Assembly (NCBI RefSeq): GCF_044324875.1
Contig: NZ_CP172185.1
DNA: 64,000 bases
Strand: one strand, 5' to 3'
DNA from: Escherichia coli
GTDB lineage: Bacteria; Pseudomonadota; Gammaproteobacteria; Enterobacterales; Enterobacteriaceae
Within the stretch, counting starts at the first letter, position 1. Each line of letters begins with the position of its first letter. Positions 7,639-40,432 of the stretch are shown piece by piece. A program made the position numbers and the translations under genes. The notes below the pieces were generated by a model that saw only the letters and a program-made list of their open reading frames with translations, was not told where the DNA came from and searched no databases.

Positions 7639-7815
7639 TGTGATATCGGTCACATAAATATAGGGGGTAGAGAGGTAATTGACGTGATGCTCATCACAAA
7701 ACTATTGTGTAAAAAAGCAACAAGGCGGCGATTTTCGCTAAAAATGGCATTTAAATGTGAGTAATGTCACATTTTTGTTTTGTTGGTTTGTTGAATCTTT
7801 GTGATCTGAATCACA
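7639..7815. promoter_or_regulatory. mtlA upstream control region with an array of CRP-type sites
   Basis: TGTGA-N6-TCACA matches at 7639-7654 (tgtgatatcggtcaca), 7683-7698 (cgtgatgctcatcaca), 7756-7771 (tgtgagtaatgtcaca), 7800-7815 (tgtgatctgaatcaca), plus a half-site at 7843-7847. Confidence 0.6.
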
Positions 7816-27263: not shown

Positions 27264-28756
27264 AATGTGTGCTCCTTGATGCGGGCGTGAAAGCCCTGAA
27301 GTGCGGCAATGAGATGCTGATAGCGTTGGTATTTTTGTTGGTAAAGCTGATGTGCGGTCATATCCGGCAGCAGGGTGCGTACCGGGTGCTGTAAATCACG
27401 TTGGGCTTCGCTGAAATCGCGATAAACTCCGGTGCCGACGCGGGCGGCAAGTGCCGCACCAAAGCAGCCGGTTTCTTCCACCTGCGGCAGTTCGATACGC
27501 AGCCCGCTGACGTCCGCCAGCATTTGCATCCAGACATCGGAATGCGCCGGGCCGCCAGTGACGCGCAGGGTGTGCACATCAGTAAAACGTTCGCGCATCC
27601 GGTTGAGATGGGTCATATGGCTGAACACCACGCCTTCATAAATGGCCTGCAACAGGTGTGCGCGGGTGTGAATGGCCTGCATCCCGTAGAAACCGCTGGT
27701 CATCTCGAGTCCGGCGTTGCTGCCGTACAGGAACGGCAGGAAAAAGAGATCGCCCCCGGCCTTTGGCAAGCTGGCAACGGCCTGGTTAATCTCATCAAAC
27801 GAGATTTCTCCCCACTGTGCGGTAAACCATTCGAGGTTGCCGGAAGAGGTGGGGCTGGCTTCGTGAACGATAAATTGACCATCGTTAACGTAGCGACCAT
27901 AGACATACGGATGCGCTTCACCGTCACGTAAACCACGGGTTATGCCGCTGGTCACCGCCCAGGTTCCCATCACCGCATTGAGGGTGAATTCGTCTTCGAT
28001 CCCGGCGCAGAGTGCGGTGGAAACCACATCAAACAGGCCGCCGACAACGGGCGTACCCGCTTTCAGACCGGTCAGTGCGGCTGTCTGAGCGGTGATCTCC
28101 CCGCAGATTTCGGCAGATCCGACAACAGGCGGCAGGGCGTGGTTGATTTCAGCGATCCCCAGCCAGTCGGTGAGGCACGGGTCATATTCCCCAAGACTCA
28201 TGTTGTAGAGATTGGACTCAGAAATATTGCTCTCTTCGCAACCTTTGACGCCGGTTAAACACCAGCGCAGGTAGTCGTGCGTCATCATCACGCAGCCAAT
28301 TTGCGCGTAGCGTTCCGGTTCGTGCTCTTTCAGCCAGCGTAATAGCGACACCGGATGCCCGGTCCACAAGGTTTGTCGCGTCAGCGGGTAGAGTTTTTCC
28401 GGGATGCCATCTTCCTGCCAGCGACGAACGATTTCCATCGCCCGGCGATCCGAGGACAAAATGGCGTTACCGAGCGGCTTGTCGTTTTTATCCAGCAAAA
28501 ACAAGCCCTTTCCCTGTGCGGAGATGCCGATACCGACTATTTGTTCCCCGCTAACACCAGAATGAGTAAGCAGGGGGCGAATGACAGCCATGCAGCATTG
28601 CCACAGTTCTGCCATATCGCGCTCTGCCCAGCCTGGCTGCGGGCTTAATGCGCACAGCGGCAGGCGTTGTACGCCTGCCTCCCGGCCTTCGCGGTCATAC
28701 AGCCCGGCTTTCAGCCAGCTACCGCCACAATCTAACCCCAGCCAGTATTGCGTCAT
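27260..28756 (-). CDS. lyxK: L-xylulose / 3-keto-L-gulonate kinase
   Basis: 498-aa ORF, FGGY sugar kinase signature (MTQYWLGLDCGGSWLKAGLYD). Confidence 0.95.
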   Translation of the reverse strand: MTQYWLGLDCGGSWLKAGLYDREGREAGVQRLPLCALSPQPGWAERDMAELWQCCMAVIRPLLTHSGVSGEQIVGIGISAQGKGLFLLDKNDKPLGNAILSSDRRAMEIVRRWQEDGIPEKLYPLTRQTLWTGHPVSLLRWLKEHEPERYAQIGCVMMTHDYLRWCLTGVKGCEESNISESNLYNMSLGEYDPCLTDWLGIAEINHALPPVVGSAEICGEITAQTAALTGLKAGTPVVGGLFDVVSTALCAGIEDEFTLNAVMGTWAVTSGITRGLRDGEAHPYVYGRYVNDGQFIVHEASPTSSGNLEWFTAQWGEISFDEINQAVASLPKAGGDLFFLPFLYGSNAGLEMTSGFYGMQAIHTRAHLLQAIYEGVVFSHMTHLNRMRERFTDVHTLRVTGGPAHSDVWMQMLADVSGLRIELPQVEETGCFGAALAARVGTGVYRDFSEAQRDLQHPVRTLLPDMTAHQLYQQKYQRYQHLIAALQGFHARIKEHTL

Positions 28757-28759
28757 GGT

Positions 28760-29746
28760 TTATTGCACCTCATCCACGGCTTTCAGCAGATCAGCTCCCT
28801 GCGGCACATCTTTAACAAACATGTCGCGAACCTGATTCCCCAGTGCGTCGCTAAAGGCTTTGCGGTCGAGATCGGTGATGACTTCCACGCCCGCTTCTTT
28901 CATGCCGTCGATGATTTTTTGCTGATCTTCGGCAACCAGTTTGCGCTGGTAGTTACCCGCTTCCTGCGCAGATGAGATCAGCGCCTGCTGGAACTCCGGG
29001 GTTAAGCCGTCAAACTTCGCTTTGTTGATCACCACCAGAAGTGGCGAATAGGCGTGGTGCGTCAGAGAAAGGTACTTCTGTACTTCGAAAAATTTTGCTG
29101 ACCAGACGACGTTGATCGGGTGTTCCTGAGCGTCGATAGTGCGCGTTTCCAGCCCGGTATAGACTTCGGCAAACGGCATCGGGATCGGGTTAGCGCCAAA
29201 GACTTTGAATGCGGCGATATTCATCGGGCTATTGTTGGTGCGAATTTTCAGCCCTTTCAGGTCGGCGGGGGTTTTAACCGGTGCGCGCGAGTTGGTGACA
29301 TCGCGCCAGCCGTTTTCCCAGTAGGCAAGTACTTTCAGTCCTTTACCTTCAAGGGAGACTTTCAGGTCATCACCGACTTTGCCGTCGAGCGTTTTATGCG
29401 CGTGAGCGGTATCGCGGAACAGGAAAGGGACATCAAGCAGGTTGATGACGGGCGAGAGTCCCGTAAAGTTATTGGAGCCGGACATCTCCATATCAATAGT
29501 GCCGCCACGCACGCCGCTGATCATCGCCTGCGCATTACCGAGGGTGCTATCCGGAAACAATTTTAATTTCAGTTCGCCTTTGGTTTTTTCCTGTAATAAT
29601 TCATTGAATTTTTTCGCTGCAATATGTTGCGAGTCGGTTTGCGATGTTTCATAACCGAAACGTAATGATTGTGCCGCCAGAGAAGATGTGCTGAACGCCG
29701 CCACTCCGGCAATTAATAAAGCGTAGGTTACAGAACGTAATTTCAT
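28760..29746 (-). CDS. yiaO: TRAP transporter solute-binding protein (2,3-diketo-L-gulonate)
   Basis: 328-aa ORF with signal peptide, DctP-family. Confidence 0.9.
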   Translation of the reverse strand: MKLRSVTYALLIAGVAAFSTSSLAAQSLRFGYETSQTDSQHIAAKKFNELLQEKTKGELKLKLFPDSTLGNAQAMISGVRGGTIDMEMSGSNNFTGLSPVINLLDVPFLFRDTAHAHKTLDGKVGDDLKVSLEGKGLKVLAYWENGWRDVTNSRAPVKTPADLKGLKIRTNNSPMNIAAFKVFGANPIPMPFAEVYTGLETRTIDAQEHPINVVWSAKFFEVQKYLSLTHHAYSPLLVVINKAKFDGLTPEFQQALISSAQEAGNYQRKLVAEDQQKIIDGMKEAGVEVITDLDRKAFSDALGNQVRDMFVKDVPQGADLLKAVDEVQ

Positions 29747-29758
29747 TATGATTTCCTT

Positions 29759-31036
29759 TTAACTCATCCATTTAAGAGGAGCGGTAATGAGCTCCGGTAT
29801 AAAAATAAATAATGCTAACAACATGAATAAAACCATGACGTAAGGCGCAACGCCTTTTACCGCATCGTCAAATTTAAGTTTCGCTACGCCGCATACCACG
29901 TTAAGAACATTACCGACCGGAGGCGTAATCAGTGATATTGAACAGTTGATAATAAACATGATGCCGAAATAGACCGGATCTATTCCCGCTTCTTTCACTA
30001 ATGGCATTAATACTGGTGTAAGAATTAATACGGTAGGCGTTAAGTCCATGACCGTACTGATCACCATAATAGCGAGCATAATAACGATGAATAATAAGCG
30101 AGGCGAATCAACCAACGGTTGTAATAGCTCCGATACCATCATGGGTAATTCGGCGATCGTAATAAGCCATGCAGATACCTCAGCAGAGGCCACCAGGAAC
30201 ATCACCACGGAAGTGGTTTTCGCCGCGTTAATCAGGACATGATAAAGCGTGGAGAAGGTCATTTCGCGATAGACCACCACCGAGACGAACAGAGCGTAGA
30301 AGGCGGCAACCGCGCCTGCTTCGGTCGGTGTAAATAACCCCGAACGGAAACCGCCAATAATAATTATCGGTAAAAAGAGCGCCCAAATACCGGAAACTAA
30401 GGATTGCCAGACTTCTCGCAGTGAGGCTTTCGGCTGACAAGGTAAATTCAGTCGTTTTGCCTGCCACCACCAGGTAACCATCAGCGTGACACCCATCATG
30501 ATGCCCGGTGCGATGCCCGCCATAAACAGTTTGCTGATGGAGAGTCCGCTGGAGACGCCGAAGATAATGAGCGGAATAGAGGGCGGGATAATGGCCGCAA
30601 TAATACCCCCGGAACCGATAAGCCCGGCGGCGCGGTTTACCGGATAGTTGGCCTGGCGCATCATCGGCACCAGCAGTGCCGCAACAGCTGCGGTATCAGC
30701 AACAGCAGAACCGGACAGGCTTGCCATGATCATCGCTGCCAGCACGCCCACGTAACCCAGACCGCCTGGTCTGTGGCCCACCAGTTTCATTGGCAAGTCG
30801 ACAATACGTTGCGACAGGCCGCCTGCGTTCATGATCTCACCCGCCAGCACAAAGAAGGGAATGGCTAACAGGGAGAAGCTGTCTGCGCCATTTACCAACG
30901 TTTGCGCCAGAATCTGGACATCGAAGATGTCCATCCAGAACATCAATGAGATGCCGCACAGTAATAATGCCCAGGCGATGGGAACGCCAAGAGCGATAGC
31001 CCCTAACAAACTGACAATAAATATAAGGATTGTCAT
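29759..31036 (-). CDS. yiaN: TRAP transporter large permease
   Basis: Track ORF trimmed to ATG 31034-31036 (MTILIFIVSLLGAIALGVPIAW), 425 aa, polytopic. Confidence 0.9.
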   Translation of the reverse strand: MTILIFIVSLLGAIALGVPIAWALLLCGISLMFWMDIFDVQILAQTLVNGADSFSLLAIPFFVLAGEIMNAGGLSQRIVDLPMKLVGHRPGGLGYVGVLAAMIMASLSGSAVADTAAVAALLVPMMRQANYPVNRAAGLIGSGGIIAAIIPPSIPLIIFGVSSGLSISKLFMAGIAPGIMMGVTLMVTWWWQAKRLNLPCQPKASLREVWQSLVSGIWALFLPIIIIGGFRSGLFTPTEAGAVAAFYALFVSVVVYREMTFSTLYHVLINAAKTTSVVMFLVASAEVSAWLITIAELPMMVSELLQPLVDSPRLLFIVIMLAIMVISTVMDLTPTVLILTPVLMPLVKEAGIDPVYFGIMFIINCSISLITPPVGNVLNVVCGVAKLKFDDAVKGVAPYVMVLFMLLALFIFIPELITAPLKWMS

Positions 31037-31038
31037 CG

Positions 31039-31506
31039 TCAGGCTCCTTGTTGTTTTCGGCTGGGGGTATTTGTGAACTGCCGGTATAAGTGACGCAATT
31101 CCAGCAATGCGATAATCAGACTGGTGGGGATAGCGGCGGCGTACATTAAGCCAACGGGGACGCCAAGAATGGGCGATAAGTTGCTCCAGTCTTGCGCTGT
31201 TTTTTCTATAGCGCCCCAGGCCAGCCCCAGACACAGCAATAAAATGAGCGTATGGGTTAGCAGCGAAACACGTTGTTGATTAGCAGGTGAGAGTTTTTCG
31301 ACTAAAAAAGTAACCTGCACATGGCTGTTGTCCATATAAGCAACGATTGCGCCAATAAAGGTTAACCAGACAAATAAAAGTCGGGATAATTCATCAATCG
31401 ATAATATACTTGTGTGGAATCCATATCGAAGAATGATATTAATAAAAATAATACAAGACAGTATTGCGATGATGATCGCAAGAATGCCTTCGAGTATCCG
31501 TTTCAT
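31039..31506 (-). CDS. yiaM: TRAP transporter small permease
   Basis: 155-aa ORF with four hydrophobic segments. Confidence 0.9.
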
Positions 31507-31620
31507 AACGAGTCCTTCTTGTTATGCTATATGTTTTCATTAATTGATATTATTGGTATTCGTAATATTTATTGGAAAGCGACTAATCAGAGATTCAATG
31601 TGCTATTTAAGTGAAACGGA

Positions 31621-32541
31621 TTAACGAGATTCATTCAGAGAGTGAATGCCGTTACGTAATATTTCGATGCGATGGTGCACATCAGCCGTCGCATTTATTT
31701 CCAGTAGCTTGATCCCAGCAAAATGCAATGTTGACGATTCTGCTACATTAAATAACTCGCGAACATGATCTGTGGTCATCAGGCTTTCTGCGCAGAATGG
31801 TGCAAACGGCGCGTGTAAATCCTGCCATTCTCCGTATGCTCCGTTTAGCGTCGTACCAGAGAACATCAACGCGCCGAGTTTTCCGGCTTGTTTCGCCATT
31901 TGGGTATGGGTCAGCGGCAACGCTGTATTGCGCCCTTCAATAGCGGAGCGCGCCCAGTTTATACAGATGCTGATGTCATAATCGGCAATAACTTCCAGCA
32001 CATTTTCTAAAGGCAAAAAGCCTTTGCGTGGAGAGGCAGATGTCATGGCGTCGCAGTGTTCCAGCACCAGTTTGCACGGCCAGTCCCAACTGGCGATTTC
32101 TTTTAACGAGCGGGCAAAAGCATCCGTCGCTTGTATAACATTAGGATTCGTTGCTAACGGTGCAGCCTGGATCTCCAGTGCGAGAACTTTATTGGCCTGC
32201 AATGAGTTGATTTTATTTAATAAGTGTCGATAGTACGCCACGCAGGCCTTGCGTTGTTCTTCATCGCTGGAGGCGAGACCAAAGCCGTTGTTTTCGCTGC
32301 GGCGACGCATGGTTTCCATCACTGCGGTGACGACAAATTTCCAGCTCTCTGGCGTATGACGGAGTAACCATTGATCGCCAAGAGGGTGGAAATTTTCCAG
32401 GCAGGGTTGTTCCAGACCGCGAATATCAGGGGTATCTGATAATTGTCGCCAGAATTCCTTCTCTTCCTCTTCACTTCTTTGATGAAAAGAAGGTGCACAG
32501 GGATACGCACCGATAATATAACCGGCATTATTCGCTTTCAT
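31621..32541 (-). CDS. Hypothetical protein (306 aa) embedded in the yiaK-sgbE operon; not a member of the recalled K-12 operon set
   Basis: Complete ORF co-oriented with the operon, 23 bp downstream of yiaL and 114 bp upstream of yiaM; no recognisable motif by eye. Confidence 0.65.
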
Positions 32542-32564
32542 TTTGTGCTCCAGTAATAACTTTT

Positions 32565-33032
<468 letters not shown>

Positions 33033-33040
33033 TTATCTCC

Positions 33041-34039
33041 TTATAACGCCTGGATTTTTGCCCACACGCTGTCATCAACCGTAATGCCGTTACGGCGGTT
33101 TTCGGCCAGCAGGGTAGTAAATTCGTGGCCGGGTAATCGAATGGCCTGATTTTCGTCAGCGCGTTCAGCGGTGGTAACGTAATCCATGATGCGTTGCAGC
33201 TTGGCATCGCGGGTGGCACCGTCGATAAGCTTGTCCACTTCAATGGCAATAAAAATTTGTGAAATGCCGTATTCGTCGCTGTTGTCCTGGGTGACTTCGG
33301 CAACCGATGCGCCGTCAGAAAGGAGAGTGGCGATCATATCCAGCACAATCGACATGCCCGAACCTTTCCAGTAACCCATCGGCAAAATTCGGCGATTTTT
33401 CTCGATAACGCCAGGTTCTTTGGTCAAATTACCCTCATCATCAAAGCCACCATCTACCGGGAGCTGACGACCTGCCAGACGGTTAACTTCTAACATGCCG
33501 TAGGAAAACATCGACATCGACATATCGACAATGGTGATTGGGGTAGAAGGAATGGCGACGATCAGCGGGTTAGTGCCGATGCGACACTCTTTTGCGCCCC
33601 ACGGCGGCATTACGGCAATGGAGTTGGTCCAGCAAATACCAATATAGCCTTTTTCCGCCGCTTGCCAGCCGTAGCTACCACCGCGCATCCAGTGGTTGGC
33701 ATTACGTAGTGCCACCAGACCAATACCGTGATCGGCAGCCAGTTCAATGGCGCGATCCATCATCTTTTTCGCCGTCAGATTGCCGATCGAACGCTGGGCG
33801 TCCCACTGTTCAATTGCGCCAAGGCTGGTTATACGTTTGGGTTGGGCATCAGGAATGATATCGCCGTTTTCCAGCTGTTGAATGAAACGAGGGAAACGAT
33901 TAACGCCGTGAGAATAAACGCCGGATTCGGTGGTGCGGGCGAACATCTCTGCACAGGCGTCAGCCGTTTCACTGTCAACGCCGCGTGAAATTAAGACTCG
34001 ATTAAAGGCTGCTTTTAACTGCTCAAATGTCACTTTCAT
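33041..34039 (-). CDS. yiaK: 2,3-diketo-L-gulonate reductase
   Basis: 332-aa ORF, Ldh_2 (malate/L-lactate dehydrogenase-like) family. Confidence 0.95.
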
Positions 34040-34240
34040 CCCTGGCTTCCTTGTTTTTTTTGATCGCTTTTTTGGCTTAAAATTTCAATATGCGAAATCT
34101 GATTTCAAATATATCGATCGCTTTTTAACAAAGCAATCTGATTGATGAATTTCAAAAAACTTAAAAATCAAGTGGTTATAAATTATCTGTCGAGATCGTG
34201 AACTACGACACACTTTGCGCTACCATCAGGACGCGACAAA

Positions 34241-35089
34241 ATGGGGAAAGAAGTGATGGGAAAAAAAGAGAACGAGATGGCGCAGGCAAAAGAGCGTCCA
34301 GCCGGAAGCCAGAGTCTGTTTCGCGGGTTGATGCTGATTGAGATTTTGAGCAACTATCCAAACGGTTGTCCGTTGGCGCATCTTTCGGAGCTGGCTGGTT
34401 TAAATAAGAGTACCGTCCATCGCTTATTGCAGGGATTACAGTCCTGCGGCTATGTGACCACCGCGCCCGCCGCAGGGAGTTACCGCCTGACTACCAAATT
34501 CATTGCCGTCGGGCAGAAGGCGCTGTCTTCGCTGAATATCATTCATATCGCCGCTCCGCATCTTGAGGCACTGAACATCGCCACTGGTGAAACCATTAAC
34601 TTCTCCAGCCGCGAAGACGATCACGCTATTTTGATTTATAAGCTGGAACCCACAACCGGGATGCTGCGAACTCGTGCCTATATAGGCCAGCATATGCCGC
34701 TCTACTGTTCCGCAATGGGCAAGATCTACATGGCGTTTGGTCACCCGGACTACGTGAAGTCATACTGGGAAAGCCATCAGCAAGAGATCCAGCCGTTAAC
34801 CCGCAATACCATTACCGAGCTGCCTGCGATGTTCGACGAACTGGCGCACATTCGTGAAAGCGGAGCGGCGATGGACAGAGAAGAAAACGAACTCGGCGTC
34901 TCCTGTATTGCTGTTCCGGTGTTTGATATTCATGGGCGGGTGCCGTACGCCGTGTCGATTTCTCTTTCGACATCACGTCTGAAACAGGTGGGGGAGAAAA
35001 ATCTCCTGAAACCACTGCGTGAAACCGCGCAGGCTATTTCTAATGAACTGGGATTTACTGTCAGGGACGACCAGGGCGCGATCACATAA
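34241..35089 (+). CDS. yiaJ: IclR-family transcriptional repressor
   Basis: 282-aa ORF, N-terminal HTH (LSELAGLNKSTVHRLLQGL), divergent from yiaK. Confidence 0.9.
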   Translation: MGKEVMGKKENEMAQAKERPAGSQSLFRGLMLIEILSNYPNGCPLAHLSELAGLNKSTVHRLLQGLQSCGYVTTAPAAGSYRLTTKFIAVGQKALSSLNIIHIAAPHLEALNIATGETINFSSREDDHAILIYKLEPTTGMLRTRAYIGQHMPLYCSAMGKIYMAFGHPDYVKSYWESHQQEIQPLTRNTITELPAMFDELAHIRESGAAMDREENELGVSCIAVPVFDIHGRVPYAVSISLSTSRLKQVGEKNLLKPLRETAQAISNELGFTVRDDQGAIT

Positions 35090-35184
35090 CGCTTTAGACA
35101 AGTGCCAAAACTTTAACATTTCCTTCGTTGGATCAAAGCAGTAGAGACGCGCTCTCTGGCACTCTGCTGTTTTAGTGCAAAGGA

Positions 35185-35675
35185 GTGATCATGAACCGGT
35201 TTATTATTGCGGATGCGACGAAATGTATCGGTTGCCGTACCTGTGAAGTGGCTTGCGCAGTGTCGCATCAGGAGAATCAGGATTGCGCTGCGTTGTCACC
35301 AGACGAGTTTATTTCCCGTATTCGTGTTATTAAAGACCACAGCTGGACCACGGCTGGACCACGGCTGTAGCCTGCCATCAATGTGAAGATGCACCGTGCG
35401 CGAATGTCTGCCCTGTTGACGCGATAAGCCGCGAACATGGGCATATTTTCGTTGAACAATCACGTTGCATTGGCTGTAAAAGCTGTATGCTGGCTTGCCC
35501 GTTTGGTGCGATGGAGGTCGTTTCTTCGCGCAAAAAGGCGAGGGCGATTAAGTGCGATCTGTGCTGGCATCGGGCGACGGGACCGGCCTGTGTTGAAGCC
35601 TGCCCGACAAAGGCGTTGCAGTGCATGGATGTCGAGAAAGTGCAGCGACATCGGCTACGGCAGCAGCCTGTTTGA
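35185..35675 (+). pseudogene. ysaA: 4Fe-4S ferredoxin-type protein YsaA, interrupted by a frameshift
   Basis: Track ORFs 35185-35370 and 35487-35675 both carry CxxCxxCxxxCP ferredoxin motifs; an 11-bp unit ctggaccacgg is tandemly duplicated at 35343-35364, and removing one copy restores a single ~159-aa frame. Confidence 0.6.
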
Positions 35676-35723
35676 AACGTTTTTCCGGCGTTTCTCAACG
35701 CAGGGATAGTGCGCTTTGTTTAT

Positions 35724-35822
35724 GCCGGATGCGGCTAAAACGCCTTATCCGGCCTACAAATTCTACCAAATTCAATATATTGCAGAAATCATGTAGGCCT
35801 GATAAGCGTAGCGCATCAGGCA
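35724..35822. repeat. REP-type palindromic elements between ysaA and avtA
   Basis: gccggatgcggctaaaacgccttatccggcctac ... gtaggcctgataagcgtagcgcatcaggc. Confidence 0.6.
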
Positions 35823-35826
35823 ATTT

Positions 35827-37080
35827 TTAGTGACTTTCAGCCCAGGCTCTTTCTATCTCTTCTGCCAGAATCTTCACACCCGCCTCAATTTTCTCCGGCT
35901 CCGGCACGTAGTTCATGCGCATACATTGATGTGTATGTGGCCACGGTTTATCCAGCCCTGGGAAGAAGTTGTGCCCCGGCACCATCAGCACGCCCCGTGC
36001 TTTCAGGCGCTGGTAGAGCTGCTCGGTCGTAATTGGCAAATCCTTAAACCATAGCCAGAGGAAAATGGCTCCTTCGGGTTTATGAATCAGGCAGCGATCT
36101 TCCGGTAAATAGCGGCGAATGATAGCGATAGTTTCCTGAACACGCTGGTAGTAAAACGGTTTGATGACTGTTTCAGACAGGCGCAGCAGATCGTTACGCT
36201 TAATCATTTCACACATCATCGCCGGACCAATACCGCCAGGTGCCAGGCTGATAATGCCGTTCATATTGGTGATGGCGGTGATGATTTTTTCATTGGCGAT
36301 GATAATGCCGCAGCGGGAGCCAGGTAGCCCCAGCTTGGAAAGACTCATGCACAGTACGATATTCGGATTCCACAGCGGGCGCGCTTCGCTGAAGATGATA
36401 CCCGGGAACGGGACGCCATAAGCGTTATCAATCACCAGCGGAATGCCGTGTTGATTCGCCAGCGCGTCAAGCTTCAGCAACTCTTCGTCAGTAATCACAT
36501 TGCCTGTTGGATTCGTCGGCCGGGAGACGCAAATCATCCCGGTTTCTTCGCCAATATGCAGATGCTCAAAATCGACGTGGTATTTAAACTGGCCTTCCGG
36601 CAGCAGTTCAATATTCGGACGTGCAGAGACAAACAGATCTTCTTCCAGTCCGGCGTCAGCGTATCCAATGTATTCCGGTGCCAGCGGAAACAGCACTTTT
36701 TTGACCCGACCGTCGGCACGGCGTCCGGCGAACAGATTAAATAAGTAGAAAAACGCGCTCTGGCTGCCGTTTGTTAGTGCAATATTCTGTGGTTCGATAT
36801 CCCAACCCAACTTCTCGCGCAGCATTCCGGCAAGCAGTGTGAGTAGCTCCGTTTTCCCCTGTGGACCGTCGTAATTGCACAGTGCATCAGTCGCTTTGCC
36901 ACTTTCCAGCATGTCGGTCAGTAGCGTCTGGAAGTAGTCCTGCATTTCCGGGATCTGCGCTGGATTACCGCCGCCGAGCATAATCGCGCCAGGCGTGCGT
37001 AAACCGTCGTTCAGATCTTCCATCAGCAGCGTAATGCCGGAGTGGCGGGTAAATTTGTCACCAAAAAGGGAGAATGTCAT
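35827..37080 (-). CDS. avtA: Valine-pyruvate aminotransferase
   Basis: Track ORF trimmed to ATG 37078-37080 (MTFSLFGDKFTRHSG), 417 aa, aminotransferase class I PLP lysine region. Confidence 0.95.
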   Translation of the reverse strand: MTFSLFGDKFTRHSGITLLMEDLNDGLRTPGAIMLGGGNPAQIPEMQDYFQTLLTDMLESGKATDALCNYDGPQGKTELLTLLAGMLREKLGWDIEPQNIALTNGSQSAFFYLFNLFAGRRADGRVKKVLFPLAPEYIGYADAGLEEDLFVSARPNIELLPEGQFKYHVDFEHLHIGEETGMICVSRPTNPTGNVITDEELLKLDALANQHGIPLVIDNAYGVPFPGIIFSEARPLWNPNIVLCMSLSKLGLPGSRCGIIIANEKIITAITNMNGIISLAPGGIGPAMMCEMIKRNDLLRLSETVIKPFYYQRVQETIAIIRRYLPEDRCLIHKPEGAIFLWLWFKDLPITTEQLYQRLKARGVLMVPGHNFFPGLDKPWPHTHQCMRMNYVPEPEKIEAGVKILAEEIERAWAESH

Positions 37081-37257
37081 AGCGGGATATCTGTCGAACT
37101 CTGTAGCAAGGAAGGTAACAATAACGCTACATTTGCTGGGGTGCAAATCGGTCTGTTGAAGAGTGAGCGGCGATTTATCCTGCAACGCTGATTAGGCCTG
37201 ACATTTTATCCTGGTTAGCGGCTTCCCGAGGTACTGACGAACGGGAAGCCGGAAAAG

Positions 37258-39288
37258 TCACTGTTGCCCAGCCCAGATGACCAGCACTTTATCGTCGCCA
37301 TGCTCACGAACAAAGCCGTAGCCCTGCTTCAGCGAAAGTGTCGTTTGTTTGCCCTCGCCAATTGCGGGATGGCGGGCGCGGAACTGGCTGATTTTCTGCC
37401 AGTGCGCGACGCTGGCGGCAGATTTACCGCTAACATCCTGCCAGTTCATATCCGAACGCGTACCTTGCAGCGGATCCGAACCGGTGGGGCCGAACGGACG
37501 CGAGGATTCATCACCATAAAAGATTTGTACCGCGCCTGGCGCTAATAATAATAACTCTGCTGCTTTGTCGCCTCCTTCACGGAACAGGCGGGTATCATGC
37601 GACGAGAGGTAGCTCAACACGTTGAAATCCTGCAATTTCTCCGCCATTTGCTGCCAGGTCGTATCCATCTGCGCCAGACAATCGACTGCTTTAGCCGCCT
37701 GCTCCTGATAATCGAAATTGATCATCGCATCGAAGCCGTGGCGATAGTAGTCACTTTGCATCACGACGTGGCCCCAGGCTTCACCGGTCATCCAGAACGG
37801 TTTGTCATCTAATGCTTTATCGGGGTTAGCTTTTTTCCATTCGCGAAGCGCGGCGCAGGCTTCGGTTTTCAGTTGCTGCCAGGCGGGCAACTCAACATGT
37901 TTGGCGGTGTCGACCCGAAAACCATCAATCCCATAGTCGCGGACCCACTGACTTAACCAGTGGGTTAAGTAATCGCGAGGGGTAAAGCCGTCGATGACTT
38001 TAGCGTGGGTATCCGTTTTGTTTTTATAGAACACCGGCAGACCAGAAGCGGTCGTTGATTCGGTTTTGATATCCGGCAAAAAGGCCAGCGACATAGTGAG
38101 ATCGTCGAATCCAGGATTGTCGTAATCGCCGATATCGGTTCTGATCCAGTTTTTTCCCCACCATTTATCCCAGCCTGTTTTGTCGCTGAAATTAATGTAA
38201 TCGTTAAAGCTATGCCAGGTTTGCCCGGCGGCAGGTTTCCAGTCGCTCCAGCGTTCACCCAACGTTTTTTTCACTTCGTCACCAGAAAGATATAACGCGC
38301 CAAACTGATACTCCTGCATATCCGCCAGCGTGGCATAGCCAGTGTGGTTCATCACGACATCAAAGAGAATACGAATACCGCGCTGATGCGCGCTATCAAC
38401 CAGCGTCCGTAGATCGGCTTCGCTGCCCATATTGGCATCAAGATTCGTCCAGTCCTGTGTGTAATAACCGTGGTAGGCATAATGCGGGAAATCACCTTTT
38501 GTACCGCCGCCGACCCAGCCGTGAATTTGCTCAAATGGGGCGCTTATCCATAAAGCATTAACGCCCAACTGCTGGAGGTAATCCAGTTTGTTGGTCAGGC
38601 CGCGTAAATCGCCGCCGTGAAAAGTGCCAATTTCTGCCATACCGTCTTTATGACGTCCGTAACTCTGGTCATTACTGGGATCGCCGTTTTCGAAACGATC
38701 TGTCAGCACAAAGTAAACTGTGGCGTTATGCCAGTCAAAAGGGGCAGGGGCGTCAGTTTCTGCCCGTTCCAGCAGGAGTAAACCGTTGCTGGTGGCAGCG
38801 GGTTGTAACGTTATTTGACCGTTCTTCACTATCGCAATTTGCTGGCTGTAATAATCCCGTACGGCGGCTCCTTCCGGGAAAGTGGCGCTGACATCCAGTG
38901 TGAGCGGTAATCCATCCCATTTCGGGCATTCACGGACCAGGCTTGCTACCGGTTCGACGGCGTTCTGGATGGAAATCATCAATGTTGGTGTACCGGAGCG
39001 GGTGTCTAGTTGCAGCGTATATTCGCCGTCCCTGAACAATCGCCATTGAGGCGGCGTGTTGCTACAAGGTTGCAGGGAAAGCATCTGATTGAGTTTTATC
39101 GCATCCGCAGGCTGCCAGCACTGTTGGTCAAAATTTAGCGTTAGTGGACGCGTACCTTTGGGCAACTGTGCGTGGCTGACAAATGTTCCCGTCCCCTGTT
39201 CGCTAAAGGCGGGAAACCCCGGAGAAGTCCAGCTGGCGGCAACGGCGAAGCCAGGAAGGAGCGTCAGAAAACAGGCGGCGAGTTTCAT
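37258..39288 (-). CDS. malS: Periplasmic alpha-amylase
   Basis: 676-aa ORF with signal peptide and GH13 motifs (GFRVDTAKH, FDVVMNH). Confidence 0.95.
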   Translation of the reverse strand: MKLAACFLTLLPGFAVAASWTSPGFPAFSEQGTGTFVSHAQLPKGTRPLTLNFDQQCWQPADAIKLNQMLSLQPCSNTPPQWRLFRDGEYTLQLDTRSGTPTLMISIQNAVEPVASLVRECPKWDGLPLTLDVSATFPEGAAVRDYYSQQIAIVKNGQITLQPAATSNGLLLLERAETDAPAPFDWHNATVYFVLTDRFENGDPSNDQSYGRHKDGMAEIGTFHGGDLRGLTNKLDYLQQLGVNALWISAPFEQIHGWVGGGTKGDFPHYAYHGYYTQDWTNLDANMGSEADLRTLVDSAHQRGIRILFDVVMNHTGYATLADMQEYQFGALYLSGDEVKKTLGERWSDWKPAAGQTWHSFNDYINFSDKTGWDKWWGKNWIRTDIGDYDNPGFDDLTMSLAFLPDIKTESTTASGLPVFYKNKTDTHAKVIDGFTPRDYLTHWLSQWVRDYGIDGFRVDTAKHVELPAWQQLKTEACAALREWKKANPDKALDDKPFWMTGEAWGHVVMQSDYYRHGFDAMINFDYQEQAAKAVDCLAQMDTTWQQMAEKLQDFNVLSYLSSHDTRLFREGGDKAAELLLLAPGAVQIFYGDESSRPFGPTGSDPLQGTRSDMNWQDVSGKSAASVAHWQKISQFRARHPAIGEGKQTTLSLKQGYGFVREHGDDKVLVIWAGQQ

Positions 39289-39607
39289 GGTGAATGAGTC
39301 CTTATTGCTGCGATTTCAGACAGTTTGCCAGCGATAAGCCAGACAAAACTCATCCCTGAGCGGTAAGTCCACAGGATGAGAAGCAAGGGTGAGCGATCGC
39401 GCGCAAAAAACGGCTGAATTTTGCGATAAACCCCACATTTTCTGCGATTTAGCGCCAATCTGAATCGTTAACTCGTGACATAGTTTCAGATTTGGACTAT
39501 TCCTTGGGGTGCTCTTGACAGCTATTTTTGATATGATTTGAGATTCAACTCTCAAATTTGTGAAAAATATAAGGTGTTGGAATGATTAAATCCGACCAGG
39601 AGACCTG

Positions 39608-40432
39608 ATGATTTTGACTCCCATACGACGATATGGGGCGATGATTCTTATGTTACTCACTCTGGTGTTTTCGAGTGAGGTGTTAGCGAAGACGCACACA
39701 ACAACAGCGAGTCAAAAGTCCCACTTAACTAAAGCTAGTAATAAACAGGTAAGCAGTAAACAAGAGTATTCTCGCAATAGTGCAAAGAGTAGTTCACTTC
39801 CTGATTTGCGAAAATACCCTTCCGGAACACCAAGGAAAAAGGCGTTTCTCCGGACCGTAATGCCTTACATTACCAGCCAAAATGCAGCCATTACTGCGGA
39901 ACGTAACTGGCTGATTTCAAAACAGTATCAGGGCCAATGGTCACCTGCTGAGCGTGCGCGTCTGAAAGACATCGCCAAACGCTACAAGGTGAAGTGGTCT
40001 GGTAATACGCGAAAAATCCCGTGGAATACCTTGCTCGAACGCGTAGACATTATCCCCACCAGTATGGTGGCGACGATGGCTGCAGCAGAAAGCGGTTGGG
40101 GAACGTCGAAGCTGGCGCGCAACAACAACAATCTGTTCGGCATGAAATGCATGAAAGGACGTTGTACTAATGCGCCGGGTAAAGTGAAGGGGTACTCACA
40201 GTTTAGTTCTGTCAAAGAATCGGTGAGCGCCTATGTTACTAACCTGAATACGCATCCGGCTTACTCTTCGTTCCGTAAATCGCGTGCACAGCTGCGTAAA
40301 GCGGATCAGGAAGTGACTGCCACAGCGATGATTCACAAGCTGAAGGGCTACTCGACCAAAGGGAAGAGTTATAACAACTACCTGTTCGCAATGTACCAGG
40401 ATAACCAACGGTTAATCGCGGCACATATGTAA
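39608..40432 (+). CDS. bax: Bax protein (glucosaminidase-domain)
   Basis: 274-aa ORF with N-terminal hydrophobic segment. Confidence 0.85.
   Translation: MILTPIRRYGAMILMLLTLVFSSEVLAKTHTTTASQKSHLTKASNKQVSSKQEYSRNSAKSSSLPDLRKYPSGTPRKKAFLRTVMPYITSQNAAITAERNWLISKQYQGQWSPAERARLKDIAKRYKVKWSGNTRKIPWNTLLERVDIIPTSMVATMAAAESGWGTSKLARNNNNLFGMKCMKGRCTNAPGKVKGYSQFSSVKESVSAYVTNLNTHPAYSSFRKSRAQLRKADQEVTATAMIHKLKGYSTKGKSYNNYLFAMYQDNQRLIAAHM

Follow-up and report, generated by a model that had tools for sequence, protein, structure and literature searches.

The operator of YiaJ, a regulator that is annotated YiaJ/PlaR in E. coli and carries the name PlaR in K-12, has been described before both by experiment and by comparative genomics. 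It acts on yiaK-S, a known YiaJ/PlaR-repressed system for the use of L-ascorbate and 2,3-diketo-L-gulonate that is also controlled by CRP and IHF. Shimada 2019 (Sci Rep 9:20415; PMC6958661) derived a PlaR box of 21 bp, the palindrome ATnTGAAACnnnGTTCAnTT, at a position overlapping the yiaK promoter. In that study, a top gSELEX peak fell in the spacer between plaR and yiaK, no other target gave as strong a gel shift, and PlaR was reported to be released by ascorbate and galacturonate. Gao 2018 found two ChIP-exo peaks in the spacer, one of them occupying the position of RNA polymerase, and a strong derepression of yiaK-S in a yiaJ deletion. In RegulonDB and EcoCyc, the YiaJ sites have been re-sized to shorter motifs. 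Suvorova and Gelfand 2021 (Front Microbiol 12:675815; PMC8222616) distinguished two arrangements of half-sites in the IclR family, with three-box alternating sites in 32 orthologous groups and tandem sites lying 18-22 bp apart. The entries of their supplementary file 2 available for b3575 place this regulator under both IclR groups and give four sites: -73 (ataTTTGAAATCAagTTTCgCAtaT, score 5.90), -60 (AgTTTCgcATATTGAAATT, score 5.86, a group-1 site), -53 (cATaTTGAAATttTAagcCAaAAaa, score 4.40), and a weak site at -127 (TtTTatgTcTtTTGAAATT, score 4.02) that is given for E. coli and Shigella only. The YiaJ/PlaR operator at the yiaK promoter is thus already known, and what we describe below is real but ordinary.

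We analyzed a window of 64 kb of E. coli DNA, and all positions refer to this whole stretch. The yiaK-yiaJ stretch is present in about 4,990 complete E. coli genomes at 95-99% identity and is annotated there with yiaK and yiaJ, yiaK being annotated in E. coli genomes as 3-dehydro-L-gulonate 2-dehydrogenase. The first-pass annotation had described yiaJ as an IclR-type repressor gene, and a Pfam search found both domains of that family in its product (PF09339, E = 1.2e-14; PF01614, E = 2.2e-66); the AT-rich divergent region of about 200 bp that it had described next to this gene was also borne out (Table 1). The same annotation had claimed at least three copies of ATTTCAA between yiaJ and yiaK. 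Exactly three are found on the + strand, all inside the spacer and with the claimed positions off by 1, and there is none on the other strand of the 201-bp spacer. Of the three, the first and second extend to the longer form atttcaa(a)tat, and the third reads atttcaaaaaa. Across the 64-kb window, ATTTCAA occurs at chance level (15 observed versus 14.2 expected). The clustering of three copies in the spacer is mildly non-random: when the spacer was shuffled 20,000 times with its dinucleotides preserved, at least three ATTTCAA copies arose in 0.2% of the shuffles, and any non-trivial 7-mer was present three times in 2.9% of them. For window positions 28000-40000, a comparison with 5,426 complete E. 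coli genomes gave 97.6% identity over 12 kb as the best match, and most genomes were at 90-97%; since the best match reaches only 97.6%, the lineage of the window stands somewhat apart from the sampled E. coli.

The copies had been modeled as three half-sites in direct repeat. What we found is an inverted repeat, formed by two boxes that we call H1 and H2, followed by a third box, H3; in the yiaK direction, their order is -> <- ->. These three TGRAAT boxes of alternating orientation share a conserved block, laid out as TATATT-TGAAAT-CAG-ATTTCG-CATAT-TGAAAT, with the -10 hexamer and the transcription start (~34100). H1 has two bases in common with the -10 hexamer and lies 20 bp from H3 in the same orientation. 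H2, which reads GAAAT on the + strand at 34094-34098 and had been overlooked, forms an everted pair with H3 (ATTTCG-N5-TGAAAT). The core palindrome of H1 and H2 is the sole match to the pattern TGRAAYNNNRTWYCR in the 64-kb window, and no further boxes of the H1/H2 palindrome type were found elsewhere in it. No recognizable inverted partner downstream of H3 is present or conserved in the window and the aligned spacers.

Table 1. Coordinates of the features of the yiaK-yiaJ/plaR divergent region in the 64-kb window and their state in the 59 aligned spacers
Feature	Position	Strand	Description	Aligned spacers
yiaK	33041-34039	-	ORF, 332 aa; Pfam Ldh_2; first gene of the repressed operon	
Divergent spacer	34040-34240		201 bp, 34% GC	
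yiaJ/plaR	34241-35089	+	ORF, 282 aa; IclR-family repressor; Pfam HTH_IclR + IclR_C	
Conserved block	34113-34080	-	TATATTTGAAATCAGATTTCGCATAgTGAAATTT in the yiaK direction	
H3 (copy 1)	ATTTCAA 34082-34088; TGAAAT 34087-34082	-	~+14 to +19 of yiaK	TGAAAT 55; TGGAAT 4
H2, ATTTCG	34098-34093	-	~+3 to +8; inverted partner of H1	ATTTCG 49; ATTCCA 6; ATTTCA 2; GTTTCG 1; ATATCA 1
H1 (copy 2)	TTGAAAT 34102-34108; TGAAAT 34107-34102	-	~-8 to -2 of the yiaK promoter	TTGAAAT 56; TTGGAAT 2; GTGGAAT 1
Core palindrome, TGAAAT-CAG-ATTTCG	34107-34093	-	centre 34100, ~+1 of yiaK	
Perfect 13-bp palindrome, GAAATC-t-GATTTC	34094-34106	+	H2 + copy 34102	
Distal copy (copy 3), TTGAAAT	34149-34155	-	~-49 to -55 of yiaK; lone box in an A-tract, 5' of the IHF-like core	TTGAAAA 19; TAAAAAA or TTAAAAA 24; TTGAAAT only 2
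yiaK -10, TATATT	34108-34113	-	read from sequence	TATATT 51
yiaK -35, TTGCTT	34131-34136	-	read from sequence; 17-nt spacer to -10	TTG invariant
A6 tract	34154-34159		six nucleotides upstream of the IHF-like core, on its 5' side	
IHF-like core, AATCAAGTGGTTA	34166-34178	+	exact match to WATCAANNNNTTR; candidate site	TTGATTT part kept across genera
CRP-like site, CGTGAACTACGACACA	34197-34212	+	centre ~-104.5 relative to the yiaK start; a short way downstream of where yiaJ presumably starts	block nearly invariant across genera
GATC (Dam) site	34116-34119		yiaK promoter spacer, directly upstream of -10	kept across genera
GATC (Dam) site	34194-34197		directly next to the CRP-like site, close to where yiaJ presumably starts	kept across genera
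11-nt direct repeat, GATCGCTTTTT	34062-34072		yiaK leader	
11-nt direct repeat, GATCGCTTTTT	34116-34126		promoter spacer; 54 bp from the leader copy	

This arrangement agrees with both families of published sites. With TGRAACA-N1-2-TGTTYCA as the consensus of IclR group 2 (the KdgR or PlaR-box type) and GKTYCRYW3-4RYGRAMC as that of group 1, H1/H2 fit group 2 and H2/H3 fit group 1. The half-sites of H1 and H2 are inverted TGRAAY words about 9 bp apart from centre to centre, one arm ending in G and not A, and they lie in the regulator's own divergent spacer and are kept among orthologues. H2/H3 read aTTTCGC-ATA-tTGAAAt, with GTGAAAt in most genera. The PlaR box of Shimada 2019 concerns the same locus and the same protein, and our core palindrome fits ATnTGAAACnnnGTTCAnTT; the published box spans only H1 and H2, whereas H3, which is at least as conserved, lies outside it. 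K-12, where 3742666-3742691 is the counterpart of window 34107-34082, reads ATTTGAAATCAAGTTTCGCAT, which fits the PlaR box, and the window reads ATTTGAAATCAGATTTCGCAT. The difference lies in the operator centre, which is CAGA in the window, the common enterobacterial form, versus CAAG in K-12. At 34098-34099, the window has TGAAATCAGATTTCG, as have nearly all other genera, and the dinucleotide is swapped to TGAAATCAAGTTTCG in K-12 (positions 1875-1876 of locus L001), UTI89, most E. coli, and E. albertii. H2 reads GTTTCG in K-12 and most E. coli, and the 60-bp core is at least 99% identical to the window in only 431 of 4,991 E. coli genomes. A full-text literature search with the operator sequence string gave no match.

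Among the entries available for b3575 in PMC8222616, the site at -73 corresponds to H1/H2, with H1 as its left arm, the site at -60 to H2/H3, the site at -53, a weaker tandem site 20 bp from that at -73, to H3 plus a weak arm, and the site at -127 includes the distal copy. Together, these entries cover all three ATTTCAA words, which therefore have all been published already as candidate YiaJ boxes. Our alignment goes beyond that list in two points: conservation of the -127 candidate does not extend outside E. coli, and the -53 site has a downstream arm that is not conserved.

Conservation separates the boxes from each other. A YiaJ protein scan with one genome per species gave 80 Enterobacterales loci at 73-99% protein identity, of which 60 have the yiaK orthologue as the divergent neighbor, and 59 distinct spacers were aligned. 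Mean information was 1.76 bits per position over 34113-34080 versus 0.97-1.0 in the flanking spacer. Between Escherichia and Brenneria, Rahnella, or Hafnia, H1 and H3 hardly change, while the sequence next to them drifts; the base preceding H3 varies and is G in 49 of the 59 spacers. The H2 variants ATTCCA, ATTTCA, and ATATCA still preserve this box. The first-pass annotation had named motif conservation among enterobacteria as a check, and the outcome is divided: the copies at 34102 and 34082 are kept, and the copy at 34149 is not. Of 81 loci, 77 carry a pattern with fixed spacing, TG[AG]AA[TC]-N3-[AG]T[TA][TC]C[GA]-N5-TG[AG]AAT (TGRAAY-N3-RTWYCR-N5-TGRAAT), and in each case it lies on the divergent side of a YiaJ-like gene. 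The spacers within the block, CAG and GCATA, are conserved to the same degree as the boxes, so the promoter or the start of the transcript, and not the repressor, may account for some of the constraint.

In 20 of the 80 species, the YiaJ orthologue is not found beside yiaK (e.g., loci L025, L026, L033, L039, L045, L049, and L051), and the three-box pattern was retained at 18 of these 20 loci. At the two of them that we inspected (L025 and L068), the divergent gene codes for an ABC-type sugar transporter ATPase. An ABC-transporter operon lies beside a YiaJ-like regulator in Pectobacterium, Serratia, and Brenneria (L068-L071, L074, L075, and L078-L080; ~2342-2392), and most such loci carry the three-box site together with a second, G/C-centred palindrome, TGAAACGGCGTTCC[AG], nearer to the regulator gene, which could be a separate autoregulatory operator. 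Three other loci (L038, L048, and L050; ~2170-2229), with yiaK-yiaJ spacers of 308-355 bp, have an extra near-perfect palindrome between the three-box site and yiaK, examples being TGAAATTGAATTTCA and TGGAATCGCATTCCA.

Taken with the published work, the anatomy, conservation, and fixed spacing found here make it very probable that the copies at 34102 and 34082 are part of the operator of YiaJ (PlaR), placed on top of the yiaK promoter. The earlier proposal of candidate YiaJ half-sites is thus supported for these two, which are conserved boxes that coincide with published or predicted sites, and not for the copy at 34149, where TTGAAAT is present in 2 of 59 spacers. The accessible parts of the literature give no YiaJ binding mapped elsewhere in the region.

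The yiaK promoter was read by eye and then checked against conservation. A promoter scan of the region returned no sigma-70 site because the E. coli -35 hexamer has just 3 of the 6 consensus bases; other genera have TTGATC, TTGACT, or TTGACA in its place. The yiaK transcript is said to start 60 bp before the ATG, which we take to fall at about 34100, 7-8 nt downstream of the -10 hexamer, and yiaK-S is reportedly under the control of IHF. A candidate site for IHF is found in the spacer, where a core of the WATCAANNNNTTR type is preceded by an A6 tract (Table 1). The CRP-like site matches TGTGAN6TCACA at 8 of 10 positions, a two-mismatch level that the window reaches about as often as chance predicts (33 matches found versus 25 expected), and it sits in a block that is nearly invariant in the 59-spacer alignment; RegulonDB lists both yiaJ and yiaK among CRP targets. 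Elsewhere in the window, at 7639-7815, CRP consensus sites without mismatches are found at 7639, 7756, and 7800 and one with a single mismatch at 7683, and four such near-perfect sites within 180 bp probably mark a strongly CRP-dependent promoter.

Some further features of the spacer were noted. Two GATC sites are conserved (Table 1), and in a Salmonella study, yiaJ was 2.1- to 2.5-fold higher in the wild type than in a dam mutant (PMC4213855). Of the exact 11-nt direct repeat, the promoter copy is Escherichia specific, and the leader sequence AAAAAAGCGATC also occurs in Citrobacter and Klebsiella. A terminator-like hairpin on the minus strand at 34138-34116 was rejected as a chance structure that lies inside the promoter and needs Escherichia-specific bases.

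The distal copy lies outside the conserved operator and most likely belongs to the A/T tract that flanks the IHF core. The exact 7-mer does not vary among the 7 E. coli genomes sampled, and E. whittamii has TTGAAAA and E. albertii TTTAAAA. The box is lost in both of these species and in Citrobacter and Klebsiella, and only a TTTTnAAAA tract persists. Some genera carry ATTTCAAAA at this position, that is, the opposite orientation, so only the T4-n-A4 tract is conserved. No inverted partner of the distal copy is present or conserved in the window and the aligned spacers, and with TTGAAAT in 2 of 59 spacers, the three same-orientation copies are not conserved as a set.

Two explanations of the distal copy have to be weighed. 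In the first, which we consider about evenly balanced between right and wrong, it is unrelated to YiaJ and is part of the architecture of an IHF site, with an A-tract 5' of the WATCAANNNNTTR core, or of an A/T-rich region upstream of both promoters. The lambda H' site has the same layout, with its A-tract upstream of the IHF core. Here, AAAAAA stands six nucleotides upstream of an exact core, and it is the A/T content and not the box that is conserved; the invariance of the exact 7-mer within E. coli speaks against this explanation in that a lineage-specific protein site would also show it. In the second, which appears unlikely to us, all three same-strand ATTTCAA copies are YiaJ half-sites, and the distal one is an auxiliary site, e.g., for yiaJ autoregulation. 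Its position relative to the presumed yiaJ start, about -36 to -42, would suit such a role, as would the exact, invariant 7-mer in the E. coli sampled, and Gao 2018 ascribed one of the two ChIP-exo peaks to autoregulation. The entry for b3575 in the supplementary file of Suvorova and Gelfand also makes it a candidate site, although a weak one. Against this stand the retention of TTGAAAT in so few spacers, with the key G in about 40%, the lack of an inverted partner, and a distance of 47 bp from H1 that amounts to about 4.5 helical turns and so places it on the opposite face. The ATTTCAAAA orientation in some genera likewise fits a symmetric T4-n-A4 tract and not an oriented box. We thus regard the third word as probably incidental. 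A bolder proposal, which we hold to be doubtful, is that the distal TTGAAAT is a recent fourth YiaJ box serving an E. coli/Shigella-specific autoregulation of yiaJ, in line with the second ChIP-exo peak and with the box placed on the IHF-bent segment, and that, separately, H3 is an obligatory third contact, YiaJ being an asymmetric three-box binder like PcaU and not the simple palindrome binder of the published PlaR box.

For the conserved boxes themselves, it could be argued that their main binding partner is not YiaJ but a different regulator using the same site, e.g., UlaR or the paralogue KdgR (box TGAAAC...GTTTCA). Shimada 2019 found the PlaR box to resemble the KdgR box and proposed shared regulation of some targets (PMC6958661), and the box sequence is near the general group-2 consensus of the IclR family. 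However, the three-box site travels with the YiaJ-like gene even where this gene lies beside a different operon, PlaR has no stronger target in vitro than the plaR-yiaK spacer (PMC6958661), and yiaK-S is derepressed when yiaJ is deleted (Gao 2018), all of which makes this explanation very unlikely. Chance recurrence of an A/T-rich word without function in an A/T-rich spacer would account for the chance-level frequency of ATTTCAA over the window and for some 7-mer being present three times in ~3% of the spacer shuffles. It does not account for two of the three copies staying almost unchanged between Escherichia and Brenneria, Rahnella, or Hafnia; this conservation refutes chance for the copies at 34082 and 34102, which leaves it possible for the one at 34149 and highly improbable as an explanation of the repeats as a whole. 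That the repeats act in RNA, as an AUUUC/GAAAU hairpin of H2 and H3 in the yiaK 5' leader, is hardly credible, since the centroid fold does pair the H2 and H3 segments but the 64-nt leader has a minimum free energy of -3 kcal/mol, weaker than that of shuffled sequences (z = +1.36; 191 of 200 shuffles were equally stable or more so), H2 changes (ATTCCA in 6 spacers and ATATCA in 1) without compensation in H3, and H1 lies upstream of the transcript.

With H1/H2 and H3 as the operator of YiaJ, the following mechanism can be proposed, for which repression, binding to the spacer, and the effectors are taken from the literature. A YiaJ dimer would most likely sit on the H1/H2 palindrome, centred on +1, and H3, two helical turns downstream, may be contacted by the second dimer of a tetramer or by an alternative arrangement of dimers; this stoichiometry and the contact with H3 are what we infer from the positions of the boxes. 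Bound in this way, YiaJ would cover -8 to +19 (H1/H2 and probably H3), so RNA polymerase would be kept off the yiaK promoter. Binding of an effector, for which L-ascorbate and galacturonate are the published candidates, would release YiaJ, and full activity would then need CRP, bound at about -104.5 and moved near by a bend that IHF makes at about -72. In E. coli, this promoter has a weak -35 hexamer (3 of 6 positions) and would be activated by CRP and IHF. The distal copy would take part either as the flank of the IHF site or as a lineage-specific auxiliary box. About 90 bp separate the main operator from the presumed start of yiaJ, and an operator at this distance leaves the reported autoregulation of yiaJ and the second ChIP-exo peak unexplained.

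Our findings have little import beyond annotation. They add a map of the operator in window coordinates, in which the real boxes among the repeated words are marked, an overlooked inverted box is included, and the third copy is seen to be lineage specific. The conserved H3 outside the 21-bp PlaR box bears on the number of YiaJ subunits that contact the operator.

By analogy, PcaU, PobR, HmgR, and BaaR are the closest mechanistic relatives of this system. The operators of PcaU, PobR, and HmgR consist of a palindrome and one external box in alternating or direct orientation, like the YiaJ locus, and for PcaU, the third box is required for binding (Suvorova and Gelfand 2021, PMC8222616). The half-sites of PcaU and PobR are of the GTTCG type, unlike the YiaJ boxes. 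BaaR of Brucella has two overlapping palindromes in three regions, including GAAAT/ATTTC. KdgR, a paralogous repressor of the IclR family whose operator in gamma-proteobacteria is RWWGAAACGNCGTTTCAKKA, has an A/T-rich palindrome with the half-site TGAAAC/GTTTCA and, like YiaJ, represses by overlapping the promoter. In contrast to the KdgR operator, the YiaJ boxes end in T (TGAAAT) and are joined by an extra third box, and the regulons of the two repressors differ, that of YiaJ serving ascorbate and 2,3-diketo-L-gulonate and that of KdgR pectin.
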